From the IMG/VR virus record IMGVR_UViG_3300034148_000087: a stretch of DNA of 41,764 nucleotides; one strand, given 5' to 3'. This stretch comes from a virus. This document shows positions 1 to 35,514 of the stretch, one piece after another. Under the pieces are notes generated by a model. The model did no database searches, was not told the origin of the DNA, and saw only the letters and a list, made by a program, of their open reading frames with translations. Position numbers and translations under genes: made by a program. Numbering within the stretch: the first letter of the stretch is position 1; the number at the start of each line of letters is the position of its first letter.

Positions 1-127
1 GCTGGTACTGGTGAATGAGGCCGGCAAATGGGATGCACCGACCAGCTTTCCGAAGCTGGCCAAGGCTTTCCAGGTCGATACGAAGAAGGTGCTGGCGTCG
101 CTGGACAAGGAAACACCGGCGAAGAAG
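1..127. repeat. Terminal direct repeat, left copy (identical to 41638-41764)
   Basis: Bases 1-127 (gctggtactggtgaatgagg...ccggcgaagaag) recur exactly as the last 127 bases of the window. Compared directly in the sequence. Confidence 0.95.
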
Positions 128-133
128 GCCTAA
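2..133 (+). CDS. parB: 3' end of the ParB gene that starts at 40346 (continues across the circular junction)
   Basis: The 40346 ORF runs off the window end in frame (1419 nt, no stop). Because 1-127 duplicates the end, the same frame continues from base 2 and stops at TAA 131-133 (...LDKETPAKKA*). Confidence 0.8.
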   Translation: MVLVNEAGKWDAPTSFPKLAKAFQVDTKKVLASLDKETPAKKA

Positions 134-173
134 GGGAATATTCACCCACGCTCTATTTTTAAAGGGAGGATCC

Positions 174-413
174 GTGTTGCTGCCCACCGATTCACTGGAA
201 ACCACGTTCGACATCGTAGCCATCATGAGGGAGCCAGCTGAGGACGACGCGCCTGCTCTTTACGAGCTGCGACTTTTTATGCATGTCTGCAGGGAGCTGA
301 AGACGCGATTCGAGATCGGCAAGACCTGGAAGCGCTGCCCCTGGTGTTCGTCTAAGGTGCCGGAGAAGCTGCACCGGATCTTCATTCAGCCCGACGCCGC
401 GAAGGAGGTCTGA
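174..413 (+). CDS. Hypothetical small protein (79 aa, CPWC motif)
   Basis: GTG at 174 follows AAAGGGAGGA (161-170). The upstream part of track ORF 15..413 overlaps the ParB tail and is R/W-rich junk. No family recognised. Confidence 0.6.
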   Translation: MLLPTDSLETTFDIVAIMREPAEDDAPALYELRLFMHVCRELKTRFEIGKTWKRCPWCSSKVPEKLHRIFIQPDAAKEV

Positions 414-595
414 TGGCGGGCGCGGGCCGCATCGAACGAAAGCAACGGGCGGCGCTCCCACCGGCGGAACGCCGTTGCACGATTTGCAAGGACAAGGAGA
501 GCTGGAAGGAGGACGTCTGTTATCGCTGCTCTCAGTTCAAGAGGCTGGGCGTGCCCGTGGTCGTGAAGGAGGAGGAATCCGGTGTCGATGCTTGA
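413..595 (+). CDS. Small zinc-ribbon-like protein (60 aa)
   Basis: The ATG overlaps the preceding stop (TGATG). Two CxxC pairs (CTIC ... CYRC). Confidence 0.6.
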   Translation: MAGAGRIERKQRAALPPAERRCTICKDKESWKEDVCYRCSQFKRLGVPVVVKEEESGVDA

Positions 596-872
596 GTACG
601 CCACCGACCGGAAGCTCAAGCCCATGCGCGAGGATCTGATCGAAGCCTATCGCGCTGCCCTGGGTTCCTATCCGGATATCGAAGCGGACTGGATCCGGGA
701 CTTTGATGCATACGTGAAGTCCGTCCGGCTGGAAGCCGCACTGAGCGTGCTCCGTGCCTGGGCGCATTGGCACTCTGGAACGCAGTACGTGGGAAGTTGC
801 GGCACGACGCTCGTAGTGGCGGAGGCCGCCCTGAAGGAACTCATCGAGAAGGAGAAGCCATGGAGCAGCTGA
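582..872 (+). CDS. Hypothetical protein (96 aa)
   Basis: GTG start lies 5 nt after GGAGGA. Composition looks coding. No family recognised. Confidence 0.6.
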   Translation: MSMLEYATDRKLKPMREDLIEAYRAALGSYPDIEADWIRDFDAYVKSVRLEAALSVLRAWAHWHSGTQYVGSCGTTLVVAEAALKELIEKEKPWSS

Positions 873-1129
873 AGGGACTGGATTTGCTCGGGTTGAAGGT
901 TAAGGATAAGGTGACGGGCCAGATCGGAATTGTGACCTCAATCTCTTTCGACCTGTACGGCTGCGTGCAAGCGCTCGTCCATCCTGGCTTGGACAAAGAT
1001 CAGAAGCTCCGAGAACTGAGCTGGTTCGACGTGCAGCGCCTGCAGAAACTCACCACGAAAGCGCTCTTGCCAATCCCGAGCTTCGCCGCCGCTACCGGCC
1101 CGGAGCGCAAGCCAGTTCCGCGCGTATGA
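860..1129 (+). CDS. Hypothetical protein (89 aa)
   Basis: Internal ATG (residue 32) of track ORF 767..1129, preceded by GAAGGAGAAG. The upstream part is R/G-rich and overlaps the previous gene. Confidence 0.6.
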   Translation: MEQLKGLDLLGLKVKDKVTGQIGIVTSISFDLYGCVQALVHPGLDKDQKLRELSWFDVQRLQKLTTKALLPIPSFAAATGPERKPVPRV

Positions 1130-1389
1130 TGGTGTCAAACACCCGGCGCCCGAAGGCCGCGGTTCGTTGTGGGAGCTGCGGGTGGAAGGGGGTGCGGGCG
1201 CGAGATGGTCGCCCGTGCCCCCGCTGTAAATATTACTTTCCCCGCCGCGTTGTCTTTGGTCCAGCCCCCGCCGAAGCGCTTCAAGCGGACAGGTTTATCG
1301 ATGAGCAGATCGACGCCCTTACCTGTGATCACAAGTTCGTGGACAGTAATCGCTGCCTCAAGTGCGGATGGATTCCGCGGAAGGTATAG
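1126..1389 (+). CDS. Small zinc-ribbon-like protein (87 aa)
   Basis: ATGA start/stop overlap. Motifs CGSCG...CPRC and C...CLKCG. Confidence 0.6.
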   Translation: MMVSNTRRPKAAVRCGSCGWKGVRARDGRPCPRCKYYFPRRVVFGPAPAEALQADRFIDEQIDALTCDHKFVDSNRCLKCGWIPRKV

Positions 1390-1394
1390 AGAGC

Positions 1395-1790
1395 GTGCCT
1401 ACCGAGACACCTAAAATTCCGGTGACGGGGAGCTGGACGAGGACACCCACGCCGCAGGCCTTCCGAGCCATCCCACTCGGAGCCGGCCTGGCCCGCTTCG
1501 TCAGCGACGATGGCGTGGTGGTGCTCTCTGCCGTGGAATGGGTCGAAGGTCACACCGGGCTGATCGTTCCCCATTACCACGTTTCGGTGTCGCACCGGAA
1601 CCAGGTCGCGAGTACCGACGTCATGATGGCCGTGCGCCATGATTTTCAAATGGAAGATGCCGAGGAGGATAACCACGGTCACGGGATCGTGCGCCACCTG
1701 TGGCGGGAAGTCCACGGCGACCCAAAGGAGTGTCACTGCAAAAACGAAGCCCCGCCGACCGTTGACGGCGAACGAGAATGGAGGCCCTGA
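1395..1790 (+). CDS. Hypothetical His-rich protein (131 aa)
   Basis: GTG (residue 12 of track ORF 1362..1790) lies just after the previous stop. Motifs HYHVSVSH, NHGHGIVRHLW and CHC. It resembles a conserved phage family with HxSxS...HLW motifs, but this is from memory only. Confidence 0.55.
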   Translation: MPTETPKIPVTGSWTRTPTPQAFRAIPLGAGLARFVSDDGVVVLSAVEWVEGHTGLIVPHYHVSVSHRNQVASTDVMMAVRHDFQMEDAEEDNHGHGIVRHLWREVHGDPKECHCKNEAPPTVDGEREWRP

Positions 1791-1793
1791 CGC

Positions 1794-2006
1794 ATGAGCA
1801 TTAGAACGCTGGAGAGAAAACTCGCGAAGGAGGCGAGGATGGTCCTCGCCAACCCCGCCTTTCGGCTGAAGGACCTGATGGAATGGCAGACGGGCGCAGC
1901 GGGTAAATGCCCGTTCGAGGCGCACGAAGGCGAGGGCTTGGCCTTCCTGCCCGAGCTGTCTGTCTGGATTGCGTTCCCCCTGGCCCTCGACAAGAGGGGG
2001 AAGTGA
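1794..2006 (+). CDS. Hypothetical protein (70 aa)
   Basis: ATG lies 3 nt after the previous stop. Tightly packed with its neighbours. Confidence 0.55.
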   Translation: MSIRTLERKLAKEARMVLANPAFRLKDLMEWQTGAAGKCPFEAHEGEGLAFLPELSVWIAFPLALDKRGK

Positions 2007-2212
2007 TGCACTGCATCGGCTGCAAAAAGACCCCGAACGAGCTGGAGGAGTATGTCGAGGCCGCGGCGCCTCTTGGGATCACCCCCGAGGAGTACGTGCG
2101 CCAGGAGGAGGGAACCTACAACCGGGAGAATGGCCACTTCGCCTGCACCAAGTGCTATATCGAAATGGGCCAGCCATCGAAGCAATGGCCCGAGTGTTGG
2201 ACGGCCCCGTGA
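2006..2212 (+). CDS. Small zinc-ribbon-like protein (68 aa)
   Basis: ATG (residue 34 of track ORF 1907..2212) overlaps the previous TGA. Motifs CIGC ... CTKC. Confidence 0.6.
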   Translation: MHCIGCKKTPNELEEYVEAAAPLGITPEEYVRQEEGTYNRENGHFACTKCYIEMGQPSKQWPECWTAP

Positions 2213-2406
2213 GTTCCATGCTGCGCGAGCTCACCGAGAAGTTTCAACGTGACGCCCTCACCCAGCTCCTCCAGCAATGCACCTCGGATCAGCAAGAGTT
2301 CTTTGCCAGAATCTATCCCAAGGGCGTGCCGCCCGACAAGATTGAAGCTGCCTATGGCCTGGTGGAGCGCACGATCAGGAAGAACCATGCGGGAAGGGTC
2401 TCATGA
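2185..2406 (+). CDS. Hypothetical protein (73 aa)
   Basis: Internal ATG (residue 73) of track ORF 1969..2406. The sequence downstream looks like a real protein (MARVLDG...LTEKFQRDALTQLLQQC...) while the upstream part is R/G/P-rich. The start is uncertain. Confidence 0.5.
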   Translation: MARVLDGPVSSMLRELTEKFQRDALTQLLQQCTSDQQEFFARIYPKGVPPDKIEAAYGLVERTIRKNHAGRVS

Positions 2407-2885
2407 AAGGACTGGGCCCGATTCACCGCCCTGTCCTTACCCTGGACTTCGGCTCTACCACGGGCTGGGCCCTCTGTGCGTTCGAAGGCCGTATCATCTC
2501 CGGTGCCTGGCACTACCGTCCCGTCCCCTCCGGTCACCCCGGAGGGGTGTTCGCCGCCTTTCATCCCTGGCTCACCGGCTTGGTCCGAGATACCCAGGCC
2601 GCCCATATCGTCTACGAGATCCCCTTTCACCGTGCACCTGGCCGCCGAGCCGCTGTCGTGCTCATCGGCATGGAAGCTATTACCCTCATGGTCGCGCAAG
2701 TCCATTCGCTGCCGATAGATGGCCTCAATGCTTCCAACATCAAGAAGGCAGTGACGGGAAAGGGGAACGCCAAGAAACCAGAGGTCGCGGCCGCCTTGCG
2801 TGCCCGTCGTCTCATGCCGGCGGGGGCGGGGGAGGACGAGGTGGATGCCCTTGCGCTGCTGTTGGTGGTGATGGAATCGCATTGA
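2403..2885 (+). CDS. RuvC-like Holliday-junction resolvase
   Basis: Motifs: LTLDFGSTTGWAL (first catalytic Asp), VYEIPF (Glu), NIKKAVTGKGNAKKPEV and EDEVDALALL (C-terminal Asp pair). These are typical of RuvC-family endonucleases. Confidence 0.75.
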   Translation: MKGLGPIHRPVLTLDFGSTTGWALCAFEGRIISGAWHYRPVPSGHPGGVFAAFHPWLTGLVRDTQAAHIVYEIPFHRAPGRRAAVVLIGMEAITLMVAQVHSLPIDGLNASNIKKAVTGKGNAKKPEVAAALRARRLMPAGAGEDEVDALALLLVVMESH

Positions 2886-2927
2886 CAGAACCCCACCGCC
2901 GAGCGTAGCCTTCGCGCCGGGGATCCG

Positions 2928-3590
2928 ATGAAAAACAATCAAAGAAAATCCGGACGCCGTTCAACTCCAGCCACGGTCCATGTCGCCGTCCCCATGCTCA
3001 TCTCCCAGCTGAAGCCGCATGCCAAGAATTACCGGAAGCACCCCCCGGATGAGCTCCGTCATCTGGTCGCAAGCATCGAGCGCCACGGCCTTTACCGTAA
3101 CGTGGTCGCGGCAAGGGATGGTACCGTTCTTGCCGGGCATGGCGTCGTGGAGGCGGCGAAGGCTGCGGGCCACGATAGGGTTCCCGTGGTGACCCTGGAC
3201 CTGGACCCGAACGAGGACCGAGCGGTTAAGGTGCTGGTGGGTGACAATGAAATCGGCAGGATGGCCGATTCGGATGACCGCCAGTTGACGGATCTGCTGC
3301 GGGAGGTTTCCCTCGGGGACCCGGCGAACCTTCTGGGTACTGGGTTCGATGCCGTGACCCTTGCCAACCTGGCACTGACAACGCGCCCATCGGCCGAGCT
3401 TGCGACCGAAGCCGATGCCCGTAAGTGGGCCGGCGACAAGGATGCGACTCCCGAGGAGAAGGGTTATCCGCTCATCATCAGCTTCCGCAACGATGAGGAT
3501 ATCCGGGCCTTTGCCGCCAAGACGGGACTGGATCCCGTGGGTGGCGCCCGTATCGTCCGCTGGAATCCCCCCTCGGGCGGTCACGGATGA
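2928..3590 (+). CDS. ParB/Srx-fold (ParB N-terminal domain) protein, paralog A
   Basis: LKPHAKNYRKHPPDELRHLVASIERHGLYRNVVAARDGTVLAGHGVVEAAKAAGHDRVPVVTL...VGDNEIG matches the ParB-like nuclease/NTPase domain pattern. A TGFDA linker and a small C-terminal domain (ISFRNDEDIRAFAAKTGL) follow. Confidence 0.7.
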   Translation: MKNNQRKSGRRSTPATVHVAVPMLISQLKPHAKNYRKHPPDELRHLVASIERHGLYRNVVAARDGTVLAGHGVVEAAKAAGHDRVPVVTLDLDPNEDRAVKVLVGDNEIGRMADSDDRQLTDLLREVSLGDPANLLGTGFDAVTLANLALTTRPSAELATEADARKWAGDKDATPEEKGYPLIISFRNDEDIRAFAAKTGLDPVGGARIVRWNPPSGGHG

Positions 3591-4297
3591 GCCGCCAGGG
3601 CGGGGCTGGAGGCAGGGGCAGTGGAGCACGTCGGGCGGTGCCCATGCCGTCTCCAGTGCTCTTGCCCCTGGCCTCCCTGAAATCCCACCCGCGCAATTAC
3701 CGCATTCACCCTCCTGACCAGCTCGCCCACCTGGAGGAGAGCATCCGCACCCATGGGTTCTATCGCAACGTGGTGGCCTCACGCGACGGCACGATTCTGG
3801 TGGGTCATGGCGTGGTGATGGCCGCGGCTCGTCTCGGTATGGACGAAGTCCCGGTGATCACCCTCGACATGGATTCCACGGACCCCCGTGCGCTGCTCCT
3901 CATGGCCGCAGATAACGAGATCGGCCGCCTGGCCCAGACCGACAACGCAGCACTCTCGAAGCTGCTGGAATCGCTGGCGAAGCCCGGGCCCGAGTCGCTG
4001 ATGGGGACCGGGTACGATGCCATGAAGCTGTCGAATCTGGTGGCGGTGGCGCAGGCCCCCATGAGCGATCGCATGGTGACCGAGGCGCAGGAATGGTTCG
4101 GGATGCCGGAGTATCACGTCGTGCCCAAGCCGGTGTTCGTGGCGATCACCTTTCACAGCATCGAGGACCGCCGACGCTTTGCGGAGGAACTTGGGCTGAG
4201 GGTCACCGACCGCACGCGAGGGACGTTCTGGCCCCAGGAGCAGAACATGGACTTGCGCAGCGTGAAGTTTAAGAGCACGAAACATGCCTCCAAATGA
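3587..4297 (+). CDS. ParB/Srx-fold (ParB N-terminal domain) protein, paralog B
   Basis: ATGA overlap with paralog A. LKSHPRNYRIHPPDQLAHLEESIRTHGFYRNVVASRDGTILVGHGVVMAAARLGMDEVPVITL...AADNEIG is colinear with paralog A, as are TGYDA and ITFHSIEDRRRFAEELGL. Confidence 0.7.
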   Translation: MSRQGGAGGRGSGARRAVPMPSPVLLPLASLKSHPRNYRIHPPDQLAHLEESIRTHGFYRNVVASRDGTILVGHGVVMAAARLGMDEVPVITLDMDSTDPRALLLMAADNEIGRLAQTDNAALSKLLESLAKPGPESLMGTGYDAMKLSNLVAVAQAPMSDRMVTEAQEWFGMPEYHVVPKPVFVAITFHSIEDRRRFAEELGLRVTDRTRGTFWPQEQNMDLRSVKFKSTKHASK

Positions 4298-5225
4298 ATC
4301 CCCCTCCGGGACCGGAAATAACCCTTACGGAATGATCCTGCCCAGGTATCCCGTCTACATCGTGAGCAAAGGCCGCTGGCGCCGACCCTATACCGCGCGC
4401 GCCCTGGCCCGAGACGGTGTGCCCTTCCGCCTGGTCGTGGAAGCCCAGGAAGCCGACGCTTATGCCCGGGTCGTTGGGAAGGAGCGGGTATTGGTGTTGC
4501 CCTTTGCCAATCTGGGGCTGGGTTCGATGCCGGCACGCAACTGGATTTGGGAGCACGCTCTATCGGAGGGGCACGAGCGGCACTGGGTACTGGACGACAA
4601 CATGCGCGGGTTCTACCGCCGATGGCATGGCGACCGCCTTCCTTGTGAAGGGGGCCCGGCGCTGCGGGCGTGCGAGGATTTCGTTGACCGATACGAGAAC
4701 GTGGCCCTCGCGGGCCTGAACTATTCCACCTTCGCCCATCGCAATTCGGGGCGCAAGGGAGGGATGCCGCCCTTTTACCTCAACGTCCATGTGTATTCCT
4801 GCATCCTCATCCTCTCCCGGATCCCCTATCGCTGGCGCGGTCGCTACAATGAGGACACGGATCTATGCCTGCAGGTGCTCTCCGGTGGATGGTGCACCGT
4901 CTTGCTGAATGCCTTCCTGGTGCAAAAGATGGTCACGATGGCCATGCGTGGGGGGAACACTGACGTGCTGTATGCTGGCGATGGGCGCTTGAGAATGGCC
5001 CGAAGTCTTGAACGCGCCTGGCCGGGTGTGGTACAGGTGATCCGCCGTTTCCGCCGCCCTCAGCACTGGGTGGACTGGACGAGGTTTCGGAATCGGCTGA
5101 AGCCGAAGCAGTCCCGCGGGGCGACTGAGGCCTCCGGTCTGGACTGGGCGGTGCAGCTGGAGCAGTTGGCCCCTTCTGTGAGACACCCGCGCCTTCGCCG
5201 ATACGTGTCGGAGGCAATGAAGTGA
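4284..5225 (+). CDS. GT-A-fold-like glycosyl/nucleotidyl-transferase candidate
   Basis: Overlaps the previous gene by 14 nt. Motifs: N-terminal strand YPVYIVSKGRW, DxD-like WVLDDNMRG and later RYNEDTDLCLQVL (GT2-like EDxDL). Assigned from motifs only. Confidence 0.4.
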   Translation: MPPNESPSGTGNNPYGMILPRYPVYIVSKGRWRRPYTARALARDGVPFRLVVEAQEADAYARVVGKERVLVLPFANLGLGSMPARNWIWEHALSEGHERHWVLDDNMRGFYRRWHGDRLPCEGGPALRACEDFVDRYENVALAGLNYSTFAHRNSGRKGGMPPFYLNVHVYSCILILSRIPYRWRGRYNEDTDLCLQVLSGGWCTVLLNAFLVQKMVTMAMRGGNTDVLYAGDGRLRMARSLERAWPGVVQVIRRFRRPQHWVDWTRFRNRLKPKQSRGATEASGLDWAVQLEQLAPSVRHPRLRRYVSEAMK

Positions 5226-5605
5226 AAAAGCTCGGGAAGAAGGACAGCGGTGGCGCGCGAGTGGGAGCGGGCCGCCCCCCTGGCCGATTGAACGATAAGA
5301 CCCTCCTGTTCCGTGAAGCGCTGAAGGAGGGTATCAAGGTCGTGCTGGCGAAGAATGCTGATGCGCCTCAGGACCCGGTGATCGCGTTGGGCTGGGCGTT
5401 GTACACCAAGGGCATTGCCGGTCACCCGGAGTGCCTCGTGCGCCTCGCGGAGTGGATCGGTGGGAAGCCGAAGGAAGTCATCGAGTTCGATCCCCCCATC
5501 GGAGGCGGACCCTCAGTCATCGAGTACCGATGTTTCACGGCCGAGGGCCGATCTGTATCTCCCCCCTCTGTTTCCGTACCAGGAAAGGTTCCTAAACAGA
5601 CCTGA
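5222..5605 (+). CDS. terS: Terminase small subunit candidate
   Basis: GTG start overlaps the previous stop. N-terminal GGARVGAGRPPGR DNA-binding motif and C-terminal LAEWIGGKPKEVIEF motif, both common in phage TerS-type proteins. Lies immediately upstream of terL. Confidence 0.55.
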   Translation: MKKLGKKDSGGARVGAGRPPGRLNDKTLLFREALKEGIKVVLAKNADAPQDPVIALGWALYTKGIAGHPECLVRLAEWIGGKPKEVIEFDPPIGGGPSVIEYRCFTAEGRSVSPPSVSVPGKVPKQT

Positions 5606-6887
5606 GCTTGAGCTCGTTGTCCTCTCGGCCACGCAGATCGGCAAGACCTTCGCGTGCGCCTGCTGGCTCCTCTCTTGGCTCTGGATTCATCCCCGCAAAC
5701 TCGGATGGTGGGTCGCCCCCACTCTTGAGCAAGCCCGCGAGGGTTACAACGCCCTGGTGGAGCTCAACGAGAAGGCGATGGCCGCTGGTGGGCCCGGGTT
5801 CATCGCGCGTGCCGTTGAAAGCAAGATGCGCATTTATCTGCGCAACGGATCGCGGGTGGAGTGTCGGAGCTGGGAGAAGCGGGAGAACCTTCGCGGCCGC
5901 ACCGTCGATGCGATGGTCGTGGATGAAGCCGGGCTTCTCGATTCCGCTTCGCGTGCCATTCTCTCCACCCGGCGCAGCGCCACGCTGGGACCGATCCGCT
6001 ACATCGGGAACCCCGGCCCCGTGCTGGGAGAGTTTTGGAACCTCTGTCAGCAGGCACAGGACGAAGCGAACGCCGGCCGCATCGGCTTCATCCGATGGAC
6101 GTGGCGCGACCGTTATCTTGGCCTAAAGGGAGAGCACCCGGACGGACCCACGCCTCCCGAGCTGCTCAATCCCGACGGCGCCGAGCTGTACCTAGCCTTT
6201 ATCGAGAGCGAGCGCAAGGATCTTTCGGGCTTCGAATTCGCCCAGCAGTACGAGGGAGAATTCCCAACGCCTCCCGGGGCGCTATTCGCGGAGTGGGTCG
6301 ATAAGGCGATGGTATTGGACGTGGACCAGGAGCCGCACAAGGATCACCCCTACATCATGGCGTGGGATATTGGACAGCAGAGCGGATGGACGCGGGGCGT
6401 GCCGCTGTGCCTGAAGTGCTGGGCGGTGCACTGGGTCGCGGGGATCCGCGGAGAACCTTATCCGAAGATCGAAGCCTTCATCGCTGCCGAGTCGCTGCGC
6501 TTCAATCACGCGCCTGCCATCATCGAGACGAATGGACCCGGCGGCCCGGTCTTTGATCACGTGCAGGCCCTGTACGACAAAGTGCAGAAGTGGTGGACGG
6601 ATAATCGAAATAAGCGCACCGCGGCGCTCACCGTGAATCGGGACGGAGGAGGCGGGAAGTTGAAGCTGTGCCGAGATCCGGGCCTGCGCAGCGAGATGAT
6701 GGTCTTCAAGAGCCACCAGGTCCCCAGCACCGGCACCTGGACGTTCGTCTCGCCGTCGAAGAAGGATGGCCACGGGGATCGGGTGTCCGCTTTGCTCATC
6801 GCTGTGGGGTCCGCGAGCAGTGGTGCGGAAGCCTTCCTGCGCCTACTGCAAGAGGAAATCGACAGGAACAACCCTCAGCCATCTTGA
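5415..6887 (+). CDS. terL: Terminase large subunit
   Basis: Walker A VVLSATQIGKTF, Walker B DAMVVDEAGLL, and C-terminal nuclease-like motifs (IIETNGPGG, HGDRVSALLIA). ATG 5415 is the only ATG/GTG/TTG start in frame, but the first ~45 codons look non-coding. The true start may be CTG 5553 (see findings). Confidence 0.85.
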   Translation: MPVTRSASCASRSGSVGSRRKSSSSIPPSEADPQSSSTDVSRPRADLYLPPLFPYQERFLNRPELELVVLSATQIGKTFACACWLLSWLWIHPRKLGWWVAPTLEQAREGYNALVELNEKAMAAGGPGFIARAVESKMRIYLRNGSRVECRSWEKRENLRGRTVDAMVVDEAGLLDSASRAILSTRRSATLGPIRYIGNPGPVLGEFWNLCQQAQDEANAGRIGFIRWTWRDRYLGLKGEHPDGPTPPELLNPDGAELYLAFIESERKDLSGFEFAQQYEGEFPTPPGALFAEWVDKAMVLDVDQEPHKDHPYIMAWDIGQQSGWTRGVPLCLKCWAVHWVAGIRGEPYPKIEAFIAAESLRFNHAPAIIETNGPGGPVFDHVQALYDKVQKWWTDNRNKRTAALTVNRDGGGGKLKLCRDPGLRSEMMVFKSHQVPSTGTWTFVSPSKKDGHGDRVSALLIAVGSASSGAEAFLRLLQEEIDRNNPQPS

Positions 6888-6940
6888 CATGGATCCCCAA
6901 GGGGTCGTACAGTCCCAAAACTGTAGGTCCTTTCCCTTGG

Positions 6941-7012
6941 GGCAGGGAAGTGAATGGGATCACGCAGGCCTCATAAGCCTGAAATCCGGTTCGAATCCGG
7001 CGACTGCCCCCA
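6941..7012 (+). tRNA. tRNA-like gene, anticodon CAT (Met, or Ile2 if modified), with encoded CCA
   Basis: Hand fold: acceptor ggcaggg / gactgcc (5 of 7 pairs). D arm gtga-atggga-tcac. Anticodon arm caggc-ctCATaa-gcctg (perfect, U33 and A37 present). 3-nt variable region. T arm tccgg-TTCGAAT-ccggc (4 of 5 pairs). Discriminator c, then cca. The molecule is short and has 3 mismatches at the acceptor/T junction. Confidence 0.5.
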
Positions 7013-7036
7013 ACACTTGCGCCGTGAGGGCATGAC

Positions 7037-9586
7037 GTGGAGCGCGATCCCGATACGGCATACGCCCGGACCCCCATCGATCAATCCCAAGCTCTCGCTG
7101 TCGTTGACAAACGCCGCGTGCTTCTCGACGCTCAGGGAAGGGTGACGGCGACGCGGGACATGGAAGTGTTCGAGGGCCGACCCATCAACCCGGGCGTGCC
7201 CTTGTATCCGTGGCTTCCCCGCGGTGAGGATCCGCGGCAGTTCTATATTCAGTCCGGGTACAACCTCAATTATGTTCCCCGATCCGAGTACCGGCAGCTG
7301 ACGCCGTTCGCGCTGCTCAGGAATCTTGCGGCCACGTCCGACCTGGTTCAGATTGCCCGTCAGGAAGTCATCGATGCCATTCTCAGCCTGGAATGGGACG
7401 TCGTTCCCGAGGATCCGAAGGAGCAACGCGCGAAGGGAATGAAGGAGGAGTGTGACTTCGCCAAAAACTTCCTCGCGTATCCGGATCGTGTCCACAGTTT
7501 CGAGGGCTGGCTGCACACGCTTTTGCTGGACGCCCTGGATATCGATGCGCTGTGTTTTTATCGCCGGCGAACGGTGACCGGTGAACCGCATTCCCTGATG
7601 GCCATCGATGGCGCCACCATTAAGCCCATACTGGACTGGCACGGGATCCCCCCGGAGCCGCCCGAGGTCGCCTACCAGCAGATCATCGCGGGGGTTCCCG
7701 AGACGGAATTCAGCCGCCCTTACCTGCCCGTCATGGAAGGTGAGGAGACGGATCCTACCGAGCTGGTGTACTCGCCCTTTTCGCCCCGCACATATAACGG
7801 TTACGGTCAGTCGCCGTTGGAGCGCGTGCTGATCACCGTGAACCTCACCCTTCGCCGGCAGCTGCACCATCTGGCCTATTTCACCGATGGCAATATCCCC
7901 GATGCCTTTTGGAAGTGCCCCGACGCGTGGACCGCGGCCCAGATTTTTGACTTTCAGGAGAAGCTGGAGAAGCTGCTCTCAGGAGAGAGCGGTCAGCGCC
8001 GGAAGTTGCGCATGATGCCCGGAGGAGAAGGTACCGGCCTTGAGCTCCCCCATGGAACGGAGCAAGAGCCGAACGGCCTGAATGAATTCCTTGCCCGCAC
8101 GATTGCGATGGCTTACCACACCAGCCCTCAACCCCTGGTGTCGATGATGAACCGCGCGACCGCTGAGCAGGCCGACACGTCTTCGTCGCAGAGTGGGCAC
8201 CATTACTGGATGCACAAGGTGCGCAAAATGCTCTCTCGCGAGCTGCGGGAGTACCTGCGCATCGACGGCGTCAAGTTCATTTACGTGGAAGACAAGCACC
8301 GAGACGAGACGGCCTGGACGGCGAAGGCCATCGCGTTTATTGGGCATGGGGTTTACACCAGGAACCACGTGCTGAACGAGGAGGGGCTTGAACCCATCGA
8401 GGGGGGCGACGTGCCCACCGTAGACACTCCGTCCGGTCCTGTGCCTCTGGCTGACTTCATCGCTGGTGGAGGAGGAGCGCCGACGGAAGGCGGGGCGGCC
8501 GTGGCCCGGCGTGTACTGTCCGCAGTCCCCCCGATCCCGGCGGCGGGACCGTCCGTCGATAGTGCAGCGGCAGCGGCCGCCCTGAAAGATGTGCCCCAGA
8601 TCCCCGCGGCGACGGAAAAGGGCATGATGGATGACCTGCGTCGATGGCGGAAAGTGGCTCATAAGGCAGCTACGGGCGAGCCAGACTGGAGAAAGCGGAC
8701 GCCCGAGCGCCTGCAGAAGGTGCTGGCGTTTAAGAGCGATGCCATTCCCCCGGCACTTCACTACGCGGTGACGTTGGCCCTCGAGGACGCCCTGGCCCAT
8801 CCGGGAGTGAAGCCCCGACTGGACTGGATCTTTGGTGCGATGGTGAAGGCGCGTCGCCCCCTGGTCGCCATTCGCCGCCGCCTGCGCCACGAGAAGGTTT
8901 TGAGGGCCGTGGTGAAGGAGCACTTCAAGAAGATCACTCCCGCCGTGGTCGAAGTCGCCGTGAAGATGTTCACTGACTTACAGAAGGCTGACGACCTGGA
9001 CGACGCGATGCAGATCGATTTGCTGATGGAATCACTGAGGGAGCCGCTGGCCGAGACGTACCTGGATGGGGAAGTTCTGGCGGCGGACCAATCGGGTATC
9101 GAGATTGCCTTCGGCCTGACGGAGGAGAACGCTACGGATTATGCCGAGCGCCGTGCGGCCGAGCTGGTGGGAAAGCGCAAGCTGTCCGATGGAACCTTTA
9201 TCGATTCCCCGAACCCCGACGTTGCCATCACTGAAACACTTCGCCGGGATTTGAAGGATGCGATTACCCGGGCGCTGGAGGAGGGCGTCACCGAGAGCGA
9301 GCTGCGCGATGCCATTCAGGAGGAGACGGGCTGGGGTTACCGGGCCGAGCGCATCGCCAGGACCGAGGTCGCCGTCGCACTGAATCAGGGGGCCGCGGAA
9401 ACCTATTCCGGCGCGGGGATCAATACGGTGACCATCCTTGACGGACCCGGGTGTCTGGAGTCGGGCCACGATGACGAGGAGGAAGGGGTTAACGGGGAAG
9501 TGTGGTCGATTGCCAAGTGGCAGGACTTCCCGGTCGGCCATCCCTTTTGCGTGCGGGATGGAATCCCCAATGTGAGGGAAGCATGA
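7037..9586 (+). CDS. Portal protein fused to a Mu-F / SPP1 gp7-like head-morphogenesis domain
   Basis: 849 aa, directly after terL. The N-terminal ~600 aa has portal-like size and position. The C-terminus (from about nt 9120) carries DYAERRAAELVGK...YRAERIARTEVAVALNQGAAETY...GHPFCVRDG, typical of Phage_Mu_F domains. Confidence 0.7.
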   Translation: MERDPDTAYARTPIDQSQALAVVDKRRVLLDAQGRVTATRDMEVFEGRPINPGVPLYPWLPRGEDPRQFYIQSGYNLNYVPRSEYRQLTPFALLRNLAATSDLVQIARQEVIDAILSLEWDVVPEDPKEQRAKGMKEECDFAKNFLAYPDRVHSFEGWLHTLLLDALDIDALCFYRRRTVTGEPHSLMAIDGATIKPILDWHGIPPEPPEVAYQQIIAGVPETEFSRPYLPVMEGEETDPTELVYSPFSPRTYNGYGQSPLERVLITVNLTLRRQLHHLAYFTDGNIPDAFWKCPDAWTAAQIFDFQEKLEKLLSGESGQRRKLRMMPGGEGTGLELPHGTEQEPNGLNEFLARTIAMAYHTSPQPLVSMMNRATAEQADTSSSQSGHHYWMHKVRKMLSRELREYLRIDGVKFIYVEDKHRDETAWTAKAIAFIGHGVYTRNHVLNEEGLEPIEGGDVPTVDTPSGPVPLADFIAGGGGAPTEGGAAVARRVLSAVPPIPAAGPSVDSAAAAAALKDVPQIPAATEKGMMDDLRRWRKVAHKAATGEPDWRKRTPERLQKVLAFKSDAIPPALHYAVTLALEDALAHPGVKPRLDWIFGAMVKARRPLVAIRRRLRHEKVLRAVVKEHFKKITPAVVEVAVKMFTDLQKADDLDDAMQIDLLMESLREPLAETYLDGEVLAADQSGIEIAFGLTEENATDYAERRAAELVGKRKLSDGTFIDSPNPDVAITETLRRDLKDAITRALEEGVTESELRDAIQEETGWGYRAERIARTEVAVALNQGAAETYSGAGINTVTILDGPGCLESGHDDEEEGVNGEVWSIAKWQDFPVGHPFCVRDGIPNVREA

Positions 9587-9855
9587 GCGAGGTGACGCTG
9601 GCGACGCTGCAAACCCTCGCGGCCCAGTTTAAGGCCTTTCAGGGAATCGAACCCAACATGATCATCATGGGCGTGCGCGTATACGAACAGCTGGTGGCCA
9701 CGCCCGAAGTCCGCAAGCTCGGAGTGTTTCCGGGGATGAGAAGGTTTCAGATCGGCCCATGCCTCGTCCAGAGCTCTCCATTGGTGGGTCCCTATTCCGT
9801 CTATGAGGTCCGCTTTGACCGCGAGAAAGGACCGGACGTGATCGCGTGGGCGTAG
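9583..9855 (+). CDS. Hypothetical protein (90 aa)
   Basis: ATGA overlap with the portal stop (residue 28 of track ORF 9502..9855). Confidence 0.6.
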   Translation: MSEVTLATLQTLAAQFKAFQGIEPNMIIMGVRVYEQLVATPEVRKLGVFPGMRRFQIGPCLVQSSPLVGPYSVYEVRFDREKGPDVIAWA

Positions 9856-20238: not shown

Positions 20239-23196
20239 ATGGGCGTCGGGAAGCTGTCGTCGCTGCTTTGGCCGGCGGCTCCCCCGCCGCCTCCTCCTCC
20301 GCCAGGACCTGCTATGCCCCAGCGCTTTTACTACGACGACAACAACTATTGGAATGGCGGCACGTCGAACCCAGCCACGCCCGCCTATCATTCCGGGTGG
20401 CATGATCTCAACGGGGCGCTTCGTGTCTCACTGAAGCAGGGGCATCCCGGCAACGCCTTCTCCAACATGACCATACAGAAAAGCACTGCTGGGTCGCCGA
20501 AGTATGGGCTGCATCGGGTGTACGTGAGCGATCCTTTGCCACAGGCCTTTACGCTGTCCGGGACGGTGCGCGGGCAGATGATGTGTGTGGAGCAGAACGC
20601 GGCGAACGACGAGATGCGGGCGGTGGTGATCCGCATCTGGAACTCCACTACGAACAGCTTCCGTGCCCCTGCAGTGCTGGTCCATCTTCCTTCGGCGCTG
20701 GAGAGCGAGTACTCCGCGGTCGGGACCATTAATCACTTCTTCCCACCCGAAACGTCCATCACGCCAGTCAACGTGCTGAAGGGTGATCGGATCGTGGTCG
20801 AGGTCGGTACGGCCTTTTTTGCAGCCGGCACCGGGGCCGGGATCACTTCACAGCTTGAGACGGGGAATCCCAGCATCGCGGCCGACCTGCCCATCGATGA
20901 GAGTTATACCGTGCCGCAGCGCGTGTCGTGGATTGAATTCAGCATGGCCTTCCCGGGTGCCGCTCAATCGTCCCCTGGAGTTATCCGGCCACCGGGCACA
21001 GGAGAAGCAACCGGTGGTGGTGCCGCTAAGTTCCTGTTCGAGCTGACGGCTCCGACTGGCCAACGCTACGACGTTACAGACCGCGTGCCCCTGGATGGAC
21101 TGGCCACCATCTCTCTACTCATCGAACGCAACCTCCACCAGTTCCGTGCGGGCGATATCGACCTCACGCTGGACGATGGAGATGGGTTTTTCTCGGATCT
21201 GTTCGAGGGAATCAAAGCCAGCGACCGGTGGCATCTGACGGTGGACCGGGATGGGGCGCGGCACTTCGCGGGCCTGGTTCCCGGTATCGATTCCATTCGG
21301 TTTAAGAAAAAGGATCGCCTTTGTGAAGTGCACGCCCTGGATCTTTCGAAGGGCCTGGAGGACGTCCCCTCTGACGGTGTTTCTCGGCCCGACAATATTT
21401 ATGCCCTCGGGGCCAACATCTCGATTTCAAATACCACGATCACCCTTAACAGCACGGCGGGATTGTTCAACACAGATCGGTTTTCGGTGACTGAAGACGG
21501 CGTCTCGGAGGAGTTCACCATCGCGTTGATCCTGAGCTCCACCCAAGTCCAGGTGACCTCTGGCGCGGCGAATGCTTTCACGGCCGCAGGTGCGACGGTC
21601 CAGCTGGTGACGAAATTCTATCGATTCGCCACTCCGGACTTTCTGGTCAATGCGCTACTGGACGAGGCCGGAAACTTGATCAATGGCAGATCGGTGGATG
21701 CGTCTGCGCCCTTTGCCGGCAGCCCCATCTTTTCCGAGGCGAGCACTCAGGGGCTTCCATCGACGGCCGTTCCGAACGCGTTCCTTCAGAAGGCGGCGAA
21801 GCACTTCGTCCGCGTGGGAAGCGCGGTCTTCGACCAGCTGACGCCCGACGCGAACTGGGCCTCGGCGGGGACCGACCGCCAGTGGATCGACTGGTCCCCA
21901 TACCGCACGCAGGCCGAGGGGGAGCCGGCGACGTTCGCCACGACGACGGGGGCGCTCGACCCGGAGGTACTTGGCGTGGACTTAACCCCGGGTGCCCTGG
22001 TCTTGTATCGCGTCGCCATCAACCCGGGTGACTCGCGTCAGGTCATCCTGAACAAGTACACCTCGGCGGACGGGATCACCTGGGCCGGGCCGTCGCTCGT
22101 TTCGACACTGGGGGACAACCTCGTCCTCGGGTTTGACATGCACTTCGCGAGCGGTGACTACGATTCCGTCAGGAATCGCGTCTACTACGCCTGGGACGGG
22201 GACCTCGGAAGTCAGTTCGGCTACTGGGACGTCGCGGGCGCCGCGAGGGTCATTCTGGATACGAGCGACGCCCGCGCCATTGCGGCGAATGGAAACGTCC
22301 GCTACTCGAAGGAATTCGATGGCCTCGTGGTCTACAACTCGACGCAGAAGGTGATTGAGATCTGGAGGGGTACGAGCATCGTGCTGGCCTATTCGGGTGG
22401 CCTGGCTTCCAACTGGTCACCGAAGCAGACGCGCTATTTTAATGGGGTCTGGTACACCGTCGGCTACCCACAGGGGATTCCCAGCGTGCTGTTCAGCAAT
22501 GATAATTTCGCCAATGTGCAGCAGATCCTTCTTGCCGGGAAGCCCGCGGGCGGTGTCACCACTCGCCACCTGACCATCGTGAACGGAACCGTGCGCGTTG
22601 TGGTTAATGCCGCTCCGAATATTGGAACGACAGCCATCGCCCGCTACTACGTGGCCTCCTCGACGGACCAGTGGACGATTGCCTACGCTGACTTCTCCGG
22701 GCAGTCCCTCATTAATTCCCTGGACGATATTGCCATCGTCTTGAATGCTGTGTTTTTCATCGACGCTCAGGGCGTGGCTCACTTCCACCCACGCCGCGGC
22801 GATTCTGGCACCGAGATCAAAGTGCTGGATGATCTCATTCTTGAGCAGGAGGAGGACCCTGTCTGGCTGGAACTCTACGATTACGTGGAGTTCACTCTGC
22901 CGGCTGGAGGAATCGCCTCGGCCGGGCAAAAGACCTCGGTGTCGCGGAACCTTACCGTTCAGGTGCAGTTCGTCTCGACCGACGTTGTGGCGGCTTCGAT
23001 CGCCACTACGATTCATTCTTTTTTCAGCAAGGAGCGTAGACACCTGAGCTTGGAGCTGTTCGATGATGGTACTGTCTACAATCTCTTGGACCCAGTCCGA
23101 ATTTTCGGAAGCGACTGGCTGGTGTACTCGGTGGATCGGGATCTTCTTGGGTTCGAGCTGCGCATGGAAGTCATTGAGAAATTGGAGGACGACTGA
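20239..23196 (+). CDS. Large tail-tip / baseplate protein (distal-tail-protein-like core with an N-terminal beta-sandwich domain)
   Basis: 985 aa downstream of the tape measure. Residues ~270-390 (FLFELTAPTGQRYDVTDRV...IDLTLDDGDGFFSDLF...HLTVDRDGARHFAGLV) resemble siphovirus tail component/Dit-type modules. There is an N-terminal poly-Pro tract. Confidence 0.5.
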   Translation: MGVGKLSSLLWPAAPPPPPPPPGPAMPQRFYYDDNNYWNGGTSNPATPAYHSGWHDLNGALRVSLKQGHPGNAFSNMTIQKSTAGSPKYGLHRVYVSDPLPQAFTLSGTVRGQMMCVEQNAANDEMRAVVIRIWNSTTNSFRAPAVLVHLPSALESEYSAVGTINHFFPPETSITPVNVLKGDRIVVEVGTAFFAAGTGAGITSQLETGNPSIAADLPIDESYTVPQRVSWIEFSMAFPGAAQSSPGVIRPPGTGEATGGGAAKFLFELTAPTGQRYDVTDRVPLDGLATISLLIERNLHQFRAGDIDLTLDDGDGFFSDLFEGIKASDRWHLTVDRDGARHFAGLVPGIDSIRFKKKDRLCEVHALDLSKGLEDVPSDGVSRPDNIYALGANISISNTTITLNSTAGLFNTDRFSVTEDGVSEEFTIALILSSTQVQVTSGAANAFTAAGATVQLVTKFYRFATPDFLVNALLDEAGNLINGRSVDASAPFAGSPIFSEASTQGLPSTAVPNAFLQKAAKHFVRVGSAVFDQLTPDANWASAGTDRQWIDWSPYRTQAEGEPATFATTTGALDPEVLGVDLTPGALVLYRVAINPGDSRQVILNKYTSADGITWAGPSLVSTLGDNLVLGFDMHFASGDYDSVRNRVYYAWDGDLGSQFGYWDVAGAARVILDTSDARAIAANGNVRYSKEFDGLVVYNSTQKVIEIWRGTSIVLAYSGGLASNWSPKQTRYFNGVWYTVGYPQGIPSVLFSNDNFANVQQILLAGKPAGGVTTRHLTIVNGTVRVVVNAAPNIGTTAIARYYVASSTDQWTIAYADFSGQSLINSLDDIAIVLNAVFFIDAQGVAHFHPRRGDSGTEIKVLDDLILEQEEDPVWLELYDYVEFTLPAGGIASAGQKTSVSRNLTVQVQFVSTDVVAASIATTIHSFFSKERRHLSLELFDDGTVYNLLDPVRIFGSDWLVYSVDRDLLGFELRMEVIEKLEDD

Positions 23197-35015: not shown

Positions 35016-35281
35016 GCGGTGCGCCACGCCTGGCCATCCGCGACGAGAAGCCATGGGTCGTTGCCTACATCGCCTCGGAGGGAACGATGGACGACGCCAT
35101 CGAGATCGCCAGGATCTTGCGCCGGATTGTCAACGAGGATGGTGGTCTCGACGGGCAAGTGTGGCAGGACTGGAAAGCAGCTCTGTCCGAGTATTTGCGA
35201 CGCTTCGTCGAACGCCTTACCGGGAAACCAGCCCCCGAGCTGGTGGAGCGTGAAGTCCCGCCGCACGAAAAGCTCCAATGA
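35012..35281 (+). CDS. Hypothetical protein (89 aa)
   Basis: GTG (residue 58 of track ORF 34841..35281) overlaps the previous TGA. Confidence 0.55.
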   Translation: MSGAPRLAIRDEKPWVVAYIASEGTMDDAIEIARILRRIVNEDGGLDGQVWQDWKAALSEYLRRFVERLTGKPAPELVEREVPPHEKLQ

Positions 35282-35514
35282 TCGGCCGGTGCTCCCGGTG
35301 TCGCCGGCCGATGAAGGGCAGCACTGCCTATGATGGGGCCTGTGCCTGCGGAGGGTTGATCGAAGTCGGGGGCGCGGGGGTTCAGCCGGATCCCCGCGCT
35401 CGCGAGCTGATGGAAGCAGCGATAGAGATTCAGGAGAAACTTTCACCCGAGGAGCTGGACGAACTTGAACGCCAAACCATGAGGAGGACCCGTGCCCACG
35501 AAAAAGACCAGTAA
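35278..35514 (+). CDS. Small zinc-ribbon-like protein (78 aa)
   Basis: ATGA overlap. Motifs CSRC ... CACGG. Confidence 0.55.
   Translation: MIGRCSRCRRPMKGSTAYDGACACGGLIEVGGAGVQPDPRARELMEAAIEIQEKLSPEELDELERQTMRRTRAHEKDQ

Follow-up and report, generated by a model that had tools for sequence, protein, structure and literature searches.

A coupled gene trio next to the terminase genes

The viral sequence IMGVR_UViG_3300034148_000087 (IMG/VR), a stretch of 41,764 nucleotides that we call the window, carries three consecutive genes on its + strand. They encode two ParB/sulfiredoxin (Srx)-fold proteins, ParB-A (2928..3590, 220 aa) and ParB-B (3587..4297, 236 aa), and a TAGT-family GT-A glycosyltransferase (GT; 4284..5225, 313 aa). 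An earlier note, made by reading the letters without database searches, had described these genes as translationally coupled and as a candidate modification module, and the present computational analysis followed up that proposal. The overlaps were confirmed: an ATGA at 3587-3590 joins ParB-A to ParB-B, a 14-nt overlap at 4284-4297 joins ParB-B to the TAGT gene, and a GTG at 5222 overlaps the TAGT stop codon (TGA, 5223-5225) and opens a basic open reading frame (ORF) of 127 aa (5222..5605, + strand). The note had named this last gene as the small terminase subunit (terS); the overlap is real, but the putative terS is assigned by position only, and the ORF gave no significant family match in Pfam or PHROG. 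No terminator-like site was found on the + strand in window 1-7200. Start/stop overlaps by themselves are common in phage operons, and the part of the locus that exceeds chance is the co-occurrence of ParB and TAGT genes, not the gene overlaps.

ParB-A and ParB-B are paralogs with a degenerate nucleotide site

ParB-A and ParB-B are 44% identical over 188 aa (E = 3e-53), a region that includes the TG(F/Y)DA motif and the stretches ISFRNDEDIRAF and ITFHSIEDRRRF, and they are thus paralogs, as had been proposed. ParB-A is composed of an Arg-rich N-terminal tail, an N-domain (~2988-3398) and a degenerate C-terminal domain (CTD; ~3399-3563); the gene caller's alternative start at 2994 gives a protein of 198 aa. 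Its CTD is without the GMPEY and WWP motifs but still recognisable, with the CTD of the ortholog on contig L012 scoring E = 3e-12. ParB-B, whose homologs form a tight family of 220-240 aa at 40-49% identity, has its N-domain at 3656-4066 (residues 24-160) and its CTD at 4076-4276 (residues 164-230), the latter with the motifs W-x-GMPEY ... F-x-S-x-ED-R ... WP. Residues H34, N37, D67, G73, D109 and N110 are invariant in this family. In an AlphaFold2 (AF2) model of ParB-B, with a predicted local distance difference test (pLDDT) score of 81.8, the N-domain is followed by helices that carry the TG(F/Y)D motif, a low-confidence linker and the ~65-aa CTD.

Evidence for the ParB/Srx fold that the note had assigned to both proteins came from profiles and from structure. 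Pfam ParB_N (PF02195) scores 17.8 and 17.4 bits for the two proteins and misses its gathering score of 26.3, and related PHROG ParB profiles match both at E = 1e-26 to 1e-29 (phrog_620 with ParB-A, E = 4.8e-26). The profile phrog_498, which is the ParB part of ParB-methyltransferase fusions, matches them at E = 1.4e-23 and 2e-25 (profile positions 21-171 and 36-171, respectively), bearing out the likeness to such fusions that had been noticed; as had also been stated, Pfam finds no methyltransferase in either ParB or in the genome. Foldseek placed MxParB, BsParB, pNOB8 ParB-N, CcParB, Noc and KorB first for the ParB-B model (PDB entries 7bnk, 6sdk, 5k5d, 6t1f, 7nfu and 8qa9; E = 6e-7 to 1e-4), followed by SerK and sulfiredoxin, and a ParB-B family profile matches BsParB at E = 3.5e-7. 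We conclude that the PHROG profiles, together with the fold search on the predicted structure, establish the ParB fold.

The note had further suggested that these proteins act as nucleoside triphosphate (NTP)-dependent partners, and this suggestion is weakened by a residue-level alignment with BsParB. Box I (Q-P-R in BsParB) reads N-Y-R in the ParB-B family, with the Arg kept, and the Asn of Box III is retained. Box II (G-E-R-R-F-R-A-A in BsParB) reads G-H-G-V-V-x-A-A, with the Glu replaced by His and all Arg gone, and the P-motif arginines are lost. Arg-to-Ala substitution in Box II of other ParB-fold proteins abolishes NTP binding (PMC12704722). Because the Box II arginines are lost, a canonical cytidine triphosphate (CTP) switch in ParB-A and ParB-B appears unlikely.

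Neither protein has a Pfam match to HTH_ParB, the helix-turn-helix (HTH) domain of ParB proteins, and the ParB family is acidic (median isoelectric point, pI, 4.9). The genome also encodes a third ParB (40346-41764, continuing to 133) of 474 aa with ParB_N, HTH_ParB and a Box II, GSRRLKAA, in which the arginines are kept. This protein is an orphan canonical-type ParB, since the Pfam scan of the genome gave no ParA-type family. We also considered ParB-A and ParB-B as decayed remnants of ParB-methyltransferase fusions and rejected this, as the family is conserved and has a conserved CTD of its own.

Homologs that consist of the N-domain only (residues ~28-152, 39-47% identity) occur on the Armatimonadetes metagenome-assembled genome (MAG) chromosomes OY969415 and OY970296 (L172, L175-L181 and L183). 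One 4.66-Mb chromosome carries at least eight such dispersed copies; here this ParB subtype is put to a different, multi-copy use. At L094:10001-10983, a truncated N-domain-only protein (P0041, 179 aa) is followed by a fragment of a C5 DNA_methylase in place of a TAGT.

The third gene encodes a TAGT-family GT-A enzyme

The product of the third gene, in which the note had seen GT-A hallmarks, matches the whole of the Pfam profile TAGT (TET-associated glycosyltransferase, PF20691), from position 1 to position 205 of 205, with 157.3 bits (cut-off 27.5) and E = 6.4e-46, the domain spanning residues 22-224 (4347-4955), and it matches phrog_842 at E = 9e-38. The PDB fold matches of its AF2 model (pLDDT 87.7; predicted template modeling score, pTM, 0.88) are GT-A enzymes, namely LARGE1, K4CP, heparosan synthase, PcManGT, glycogenin and the ABO GTs. 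In BFVD the model matches viral TAGT-domain proteins at template modeling (TM) scores of 0.6-0.9, including an annotated T-even-type beta-glucosyl-hydroxymethylcytosine (HMC)-alpha-glucosyltransferase. The motifs VYIVSKGRW, DDN and NEDTDL are all present, and R31, D104-D105-N106 and E190-D191 are invariant across 62 homologs. The protein carries the motif of GT-A DNA GTs, R ... DDD ... ED(Y/F), in a form in which this clade has Asn as the third Asp and Thr after ED. The best viral structural match, BFVD A0A6G6XN95 (40% identity over 273 columns), is 890 aa long, and the TAGT domain is therefore embedded there in a much larger multidomain protein.

The ParB-linked clade is 51-83% identical to the enzyme across the homologs and loci retained; in T4-like Aeromonas phages, the homologs are 40-44% identical. 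With a pI of 10.2 (clade median 9.5) and a basic, conserved C-terminal tail, the TAGT protein is strongly basic, like an enzyme working on a polyanion. Characterised TAGT relatives all act on DNA (PMC13216743, PMC8256090, bioRxiv 10.1101/2023.12.21.572611), and by analogy with them sugar transfer to DNA is the favoured activity.

ParB and TAGT genes are linked across unrelated phages

IMG/VR holds 371 stretches that encode ParB-B relatives, and 83 loci were examined. A gene for a ParB with N-domain and CTD lies directly 5′ of a TAGT gene on the same strand in 82 of these 83 ParB-anchored loci, the sole exception being a gene at a contig edge. When TAGT served as the anchor, 60 of 68 new loci had ParB(N+CTD) upstream, five had a CTD at the contig end and three had no upstream room; an upstream ParB/CTD was thus present in 65/65 informative loci. 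The linkage on which the note's proposal depended is therefore kept from both directions. It spans unrelated phage backbones, with Mu-like, SPP1-like portal and T4-type phages and Terminase_3 or TerL_ATPase terminases, and the pair has no conserved third member: the largest cluster of non-packaging neighbours is found in 14/82 loci. A second ParB N-domain recurs, either as separate paralogs (the window, L093, L095) or as a tandem fusion, and some loci have a second, tandem TAGT (e.g., L093 and L015).

Additional genes accompany the pair in some phages. Genes for UXS-like NAD-dependent epimerase/dehydratases (E = 4e-48; L036:2878-3810 and 13 other loci) flank ParB-TAGT, as does UDP-glucose dehydrogenase in some phages, and these phages may use a pentose or uronic-acid donor rather than glucose. 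In a Mu-like phage (L095:2005-3598), a radical-SAM/SPASM protein and a class-I methyltransferase are encoded directly 5′ of ParB-ParB-TAGT, which hints at extra chemistry attached to the module in some phages. At L028:10517-12286, a MuF head-morphogenesis domain is fused to an ADP-ribosyltransferase exoenzyme domain (E = 8e-18) 3′ of ParB-TAGT.

A natural variant of the module was also found. When the window was compared by blastn with an IMG/VR contig of 99.7% identity (L012/L100), the latter showed a clean 693-bp deletion of window 4001..4693, which removes the ParB-B linker and CTD together with TAGT residues 1-137, leaves a truncated product (P0004) and has 3-bp GAT microhomology at both edges. 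Another contig, L097, begins exactly at window 4694. Variants without a functional module thus seem to circulate, and the module is therefore accessory, as expected of an anti-defence modification. An essential packaging role of the module, a further candidate, is ruled out by the same deletion.

The C-terminal domain accompanies the transferase in cis or in trans

The CTD has the signature W-x-G-M-P-E-Y ... F-x-S-x-E-D-R-x-x-F ... S-x-W-W-P. A profile of the CTD alone matched 2,553 representative proteins, 410 of them at E <= 1e-10, and architectures were taken from the best 148. Among these 148, 47 are ParBN-CTD, 42 are ParBN-ParBN-CTD and 30 are short CTD-only proteins, with the remaining 29 having either fusions or further, unassigned regions. 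The CTD is joined to TAGT in metagenomic proteins of the form CTD-TAGT (P0424) and CTD-CTD-TAGT (P0360), at E = 1e-26. It also occurs in cis with TAGT in gp093 of the cultured Aeromonas phage Aeh1 (E = 6e-11) and, with a weaker match, in the TAGT chain of Vibrio phages 1.124.O and 1.076.O, and the proteins of these three phages are the TAGT homologs that are closest among cultured phages. A CTD is missing from the TET-linked TAGT of phage P12024L. ParBN-CTD is further joined to a class-I S-adenosylmethionine (SAM) methyltransferase, an FkbM methyltransferase, Sulfotransfer_2 and a DXD glycosyltransferase. We conclude that the CTD goes with this TAGT clade throughout, either in cis or in trans, and that it behaves as a portable adaptor for group-transfer enzymes. 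The idea that the CTD is instead a glycan acceptor or carrier domain is unlikely, since every fused transferase brings a copy of it along, as would sooner be expected of a docking or activator domain.

These results bear on whether ParB-A and ParB-B could be regulators, either DndB- or KorB-like NTP-dependent switches of late-operon transcription or timing, or pac-site or partition factors, with the adjacent TAGT gene merely co-regulated. Regulators with a ParB fold do exist in DndB and KorB (PMC12704722, PMC13229309), and the two ParB genes stand at the start of the packaging operon. However, Pfam finds no HTH or other DNA-binding domain in them, their Box II arginines are lost, and the genome has the separate full-length ParB with HTH at 40346-133. 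TAGT linkage is ~100% while downstream genes vary, and the fusion of the CTD in cis to TAGT and other transferases indicates a physical rather than a transcriptional partnership. A regulatory role is therefore highly improbable. As partition or centromere factors in particular the two proteins were rejected on the missing HTH, the missing ParA, the separate full-length ParB and the near-complete TAGT linkage.

Genomic setting of the module

A gene for a RuvC-like Holliday-junction resolvase (2403..2885, + strand; phrog_159, E = 8e-16; Pfam RuvC, E = 1e-3) lies directly 5′ of the trio, an order also seen in the relative L093. On the other side, the putative terS is followed by the gene for the large terminase subunit, terL (5757..6887, + strand; Terminase_6N, E = 4.4e-9; phrog_2, E = 1e-35), for which the ORF is open from 5415 and the gene caller's start is 5757, and then by a portal gene. 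Of the 57 related loci with enough sequence, at least 45 have terL as their first large gene downstream; RuvC or RusA lies upstream, and the flanks consist mostly of DNA-processing genes (RuvC, RusA, HNH, terminase).

An exact 127-nt direct repeat is present at both window ends (1-127 and 41638-41764), and the same genome was assembled from several metagenomic samples as 41.6-41.7 kb contigs with other start points. The window therefore represents a phage genome of ~41,637 bp that is complete and either circular or circularly permuted. A nucleotide search of window 2400-9600 against 50,697 phage records gave no match, and it thus has no cultured close relative among them. Within 185,579 species genomes the full-length ParB family was found only on ~8 small MAG contigs. 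Binning of the closest relatives tentatively suggests that the host is possibly a member of the Acidobacteriota.

Several other features of the genome were observed. With its MuF-like C-terminus, the portal ORF (7037-9586, 849 aa) looks like a fusion of portal and MuF; matches to Phage_portal and to Phage_Mu_F occur among the ORFs of the genome, and the related locus L041:7616-9904 is a confirmed portal+MuF fusion. A His-rich ORF of 142 aa at 1362-1790 (10 His; HYHVSVSH, NHGHG, CHC) is without a family match, several small Cys-rich zinc-ribbon-like ORFs (413-595, 1126-1389 and 35278-35514) are assigned to the early region, and a 985-aa tail-region protein (20239-23196) starts with a run of nine prolines (PPPPPPPPPGP).

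Search for a source of hydroxylated bases

The genome being complete, the absence of recognisable priming enzymes can be asserted. A Pfam scan of 68 ORFs covering the genome (E <= 0.05; 21 families in total) gave no TET_JBP, other 2-oxoglutarate (2OG) oxygenase, thymidylate-synthase-like enzyme (ThyS) or DNA methylase, and the window genome likewise yielded no alpha-GT/beta-GT, deoxycytidine monophosphate (dCMP) hydroxymethylase or TET/JBP with C5-methyltransferase. A scan of the neighbouring genes (150 cluster representatives; 25 of 67 families listed) could not alone exclude TET/JBP, and a TET/JBP profile was therefore built from gp26 of phage P12024L and 120 homologs. This profile, which is narrow (effective number of sequences, Neff, 1.5), had no match in the window or in ~150 related loci, and hhalign found nothing when it was compared with 17 unannotated window ORFs. 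An HxD/E...H triad is absent from all unannotated window ORFs of more than 200 aa. In the cultured phages Aeh1 and 65, both of which carry a TAGT homolog, gene 42 (dCMP hydroxymethylase) and gene 56 are listed as absent (Petrov et al., PMC2993671), and the InterPro-based genome annotation of Vibrio phage 1.076.O contains no TET or ThyS.

A first step could nevertheless be hidden. A divergent dioxygenase or hydroxymethylase, or the host, would then supply 5-hydroxymethylcytosine (5hmC), 5-hydroxymethyluracil (5hmU) or 5-hydroxycytosine, with the ParBs activating that enzyme and the TAGT glycosylating its product. O'Toole et al. (PNAS 2026) found that a subclass of phage thymine dioxygenases (5mYOX) needs a cognate ParB on double-stranded DNA (dsDNA), and ParB activators are documented only for 5mYOX (PMC13229309). 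Thousands of contigs have a 5mYOX that escapes the Pfam model, and the commonest 5mYOX neighbours are GTs (31%), ParBs (27%) and terminases (19%) (PMC13229309). The classical arrangement of TET, TAGT and methyltransferase exists in phage P12024L, and several window ORFs are without any annotation. This explanation is opposed by the negative Pfam, profile, hhalign and triad searches, by the lack of a third gene conserved with ParB-TAGT, by the missing gene 42 of Aeh1 and 65, and by the window ParBs themselves, which, unlike those associated with 5mYOX, are without Box II arginines. We regard a hidden first step as quite improbable.

On a more far-reaching reading, the TAGT clade, once switched on by its ParB/CTD partner, would glycosylate DNA directly, without any earlier hydroxymethylation or hydroxylation. 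Candidate targets would be an exocyclic amine or a carbonyl oxygen on a canonical base, or else the backbone or the DNA ends in the course of packaging. Direct transfer of this kind is unlikely in our judgment. Should it prove true, it would be the first DNA glycosylation pathway without priming by TET, JBP or a thymidylate-synthase-like enzyme, and it would also account for many "solitary" phage GT-A genes; with a canonical base as the acceptor, it would be a new DNA-modification chemistry, relevant to restriction and CRISPR evasion and to DNA-labelling tools.

A possible two-component glycosylation module

We suggest, at about even odds (a probability of roughly 0.5), that the trio is a self-contained, TET-independent module of two components, a ParB-fold adaptor or activator and a DNA glycosyltransferase, in parallel with 5mYOX/ParB. 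The TAGT-family enzyme would be the catalytic subunit, and ParB-A and ParB-B would be its dedicated non-catalytic partners, most likely a heterodimeric adaptor/activator that presents a pair of N-domains and couples to TAGT through the family-specific CTD. The adaptor would enable TAGT to act on double-stranded phage DNA, in analogy to the phage thymine dioxygenases, in which a ParB without a DNA-binding domain switches on a DNA-modifying enzyme on dsDNA. The module would be expressed from the head of a late DNA-maturation and packaging operon (RuvC, ParB-A, ParB-B, TAGT, terS, terL), from which it would follow that concatemeric DNA is decorated with sugar just before or during packaging and is so protected from host nucleases. 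The idea that ParB directs modification during packaging reportedly goes back to Iyer et al. in 2013, as does the TAGT name. We infer that DNA is the substrate, that the ParBs serve as adaptor/activator and form a heterodimer, that the module acts at this time and that it is of benefit against restriction, and "candidate modification module linked to packaging", the wording of the earlier note, is a fair description of the locus.

A number of points weigh against this proposal. With their acidic character, the lack of a DNA-binding domain and the loss of the Box II arginines, the ParBs are unlikely to work as a DNA clamp or through a CTP switch, and only analogy links them to DNA. The ParB-TAGT partnership as a physical complex is one that we likewise infer, here from gene order and fusions, and the CTD in the AF2 model is only partly confident and matched no solved PDB structure. 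The negatives of the narrow 5mYOX/TET profile are weaker than those of the Pfam scan of the window. To our knowledge, all characterised enzymes of the TAGT or JGT type require a hydroxyl group, be it on a pre-modified base or on a sugar, and canonical DNA presents no hydroxyl in its grooves. Finally, the sulfotransferase, FkbM methyltransferase and GT32-like enzymes fused to ParBN-CTD classically tailor polysaccharides or glycoproteins, and in Vibrio phage 1.076.O the fusion gene is flanked by portal and MuF, a location that would fit a target among the virion proteins as well.

The last of these points lead to a different substrate, in which a TAGT guided by ParB-CTD would put its sugar on a protein, be it capsid, portal, terminase or a host factor, or on a polyanionic polymer of another kind, making the trio a virion-glycosylation or host-modification system. 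The missing source of hydroxylated bases, the UDP-glucose dehydrogenase and UXS-like genes that flank some modules, and the acidic partners without a DNA-binding domain are all in keeping with this, and sulfiredoxin shows that a ParB/Srx fold is able to target a protein. Every characterised member of the TAGT family acts on DNA, however (PMC13216743, PMC8256090), the subtype of the ParB N-domain is that of the fusions with DNA N6/N4 methyltransferases, the TAGT clade is basic throughout, and the flanks in most loci encode DNA processing rather than capsid or tail functions. Proven clusters for DNA hypermodification also contain O-methyltransferases and sugar epimerases (PMC13229309). We consider a non-DNA target unlikely. 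The note had left DNA glycosylation, virion glycosylation and a packaging role side by side; the evidence favours DNA, although the three are not fully separable computationally.

A ParB-assisted DNA glycosyltransferase would matter in several respects. The current view of glycosylation in phage DNA is that sugars decorate pyrimidines that are hydroxymethylated or hydroxylated, and here a large TAGT clade of high conservation has as its defining feature an obligate ParB-fold/CTD partner and not TET. The concept of ParB as the activator of a DNA-modifying enzyme would be extended from dioxygenases to glycosyltransferases and, via the fusions, to methyl- and sulfotransferases. The CTD offers a simple genomic marker for sorting solitary GTs, and the Aeromonas phages Aeh1 and 65, along with the Vibrio phages 1.076.O and 1.124.O, are cultured phages in which the acceptor can be tested.

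Comparison with known systems

The note had not recognized the combination as a described system. That holds for the exact pair, in that we found no description in the literature of an obligate ParB-TAGT pair or of the CTD; it no longer holds for the wider idea, as ParB-like dioxygenase activators are known since 2026 (PMC13229309) and ParBs near phage GTs have been mentioned in passing, in a study that tied ParB annotations to 5mYOX/ThyS pathways (bioRxiv 10.1101/2023.12.21.572611). In the same study, ~65% of virus GT contigs are without 5mYOX or ThyS. Another describes the TAGTs of 288 out of 753 TAGT-encoding phages as "solitary" and their function as undefined (PMC13216743), and a survey of the ParB-CTPase fold makes no mention of glycosyltransferases (PMC12704722).

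Among glycosyltransferases, the beta-glucosyl-HMC-alpha-glucosyltransferase of T2/T6 and the TET-associated GT-As share with the window TAGT the full-length profile, the GT-A fold and the residues R...DD(D/N)...ED. The window genome has no recognisable enzyme of the kinds searched for above that would supply an acceptor, and the ParB-linked clade always comes with a ParB-CTD in trans or a CTD in cis, whereas the TET-linked P12024L gp27, 25% identical to the window TAGT, has no CTD. Base J of kinetoplastids (JBP1/2 and JGT) is similar in that a GT-A glucosyltransferase with a structural relationship to the phage GT-A DNA GTs decorates DNA after replication (bioRxiv 10.1101/2023.12.21.572611). 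JGT, however, needs 5hmU from JBP, a step not found in the window genome, and has no ParB partner.

The ParB-DNA methyltransferase fusions (PF02195 + PF01555, phrog_498; PMC12704722) have the same ParB N-domain subtype as the window proteins, with the motifs HP-x-N-x-R-x-H ... GHG ... DN and then the TGF/Y-D helix, and in Gordonia phages the fusion genes map within ~5 kb of the record end. Box II reads GHGV in the window ParBs and contains Arg (GNHR/GHGR) in the extra N-domains of the tandem versions. Neither window ParB has the methyltransferase domain; the CTD takes its place, and the transferase is a separate, coupled GT. The logic is the same in both, a ParB module attached to a DNA-modifying transferase.

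The closest parallel is 5mYOX/ParB. The activating ParB there consists of an N-domain and a CTD and is without a DNA-binding domain (PMC13229309), and Clade C1/ParB (5mYOX176/ParB176) has the same succession of N-domain, linker and small CTD as the window proteins. The two systems differ in the partner enzyme, which is a dioxygenase in 5mYOX/ParB and a glycosyltransferase in the window, in whose genome no 5mYOX was found. They also seem to differ in the two ParB paralogs or tandem N-domains that are common in window-type modules, and in the window CTD, which has its own signature (W-x-GMPEY ... WWP) and occurs fused to transferases. The NTP residues are largely conserved in the 5mYOX-ParBs, whereas the window ParBs have no Box II arginines; nonetheless, the canonical NTP-site residues appear dispensable in the former and are degenerate in the latter. 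For both the 5mYOX ParBs and ParB-B the closest solved structures are MxParB and CcParB, and the 5mYOX/ParB loci likewise lie beside a post-replicative DNA-modifying enzyme, often near terminase and GT genes.

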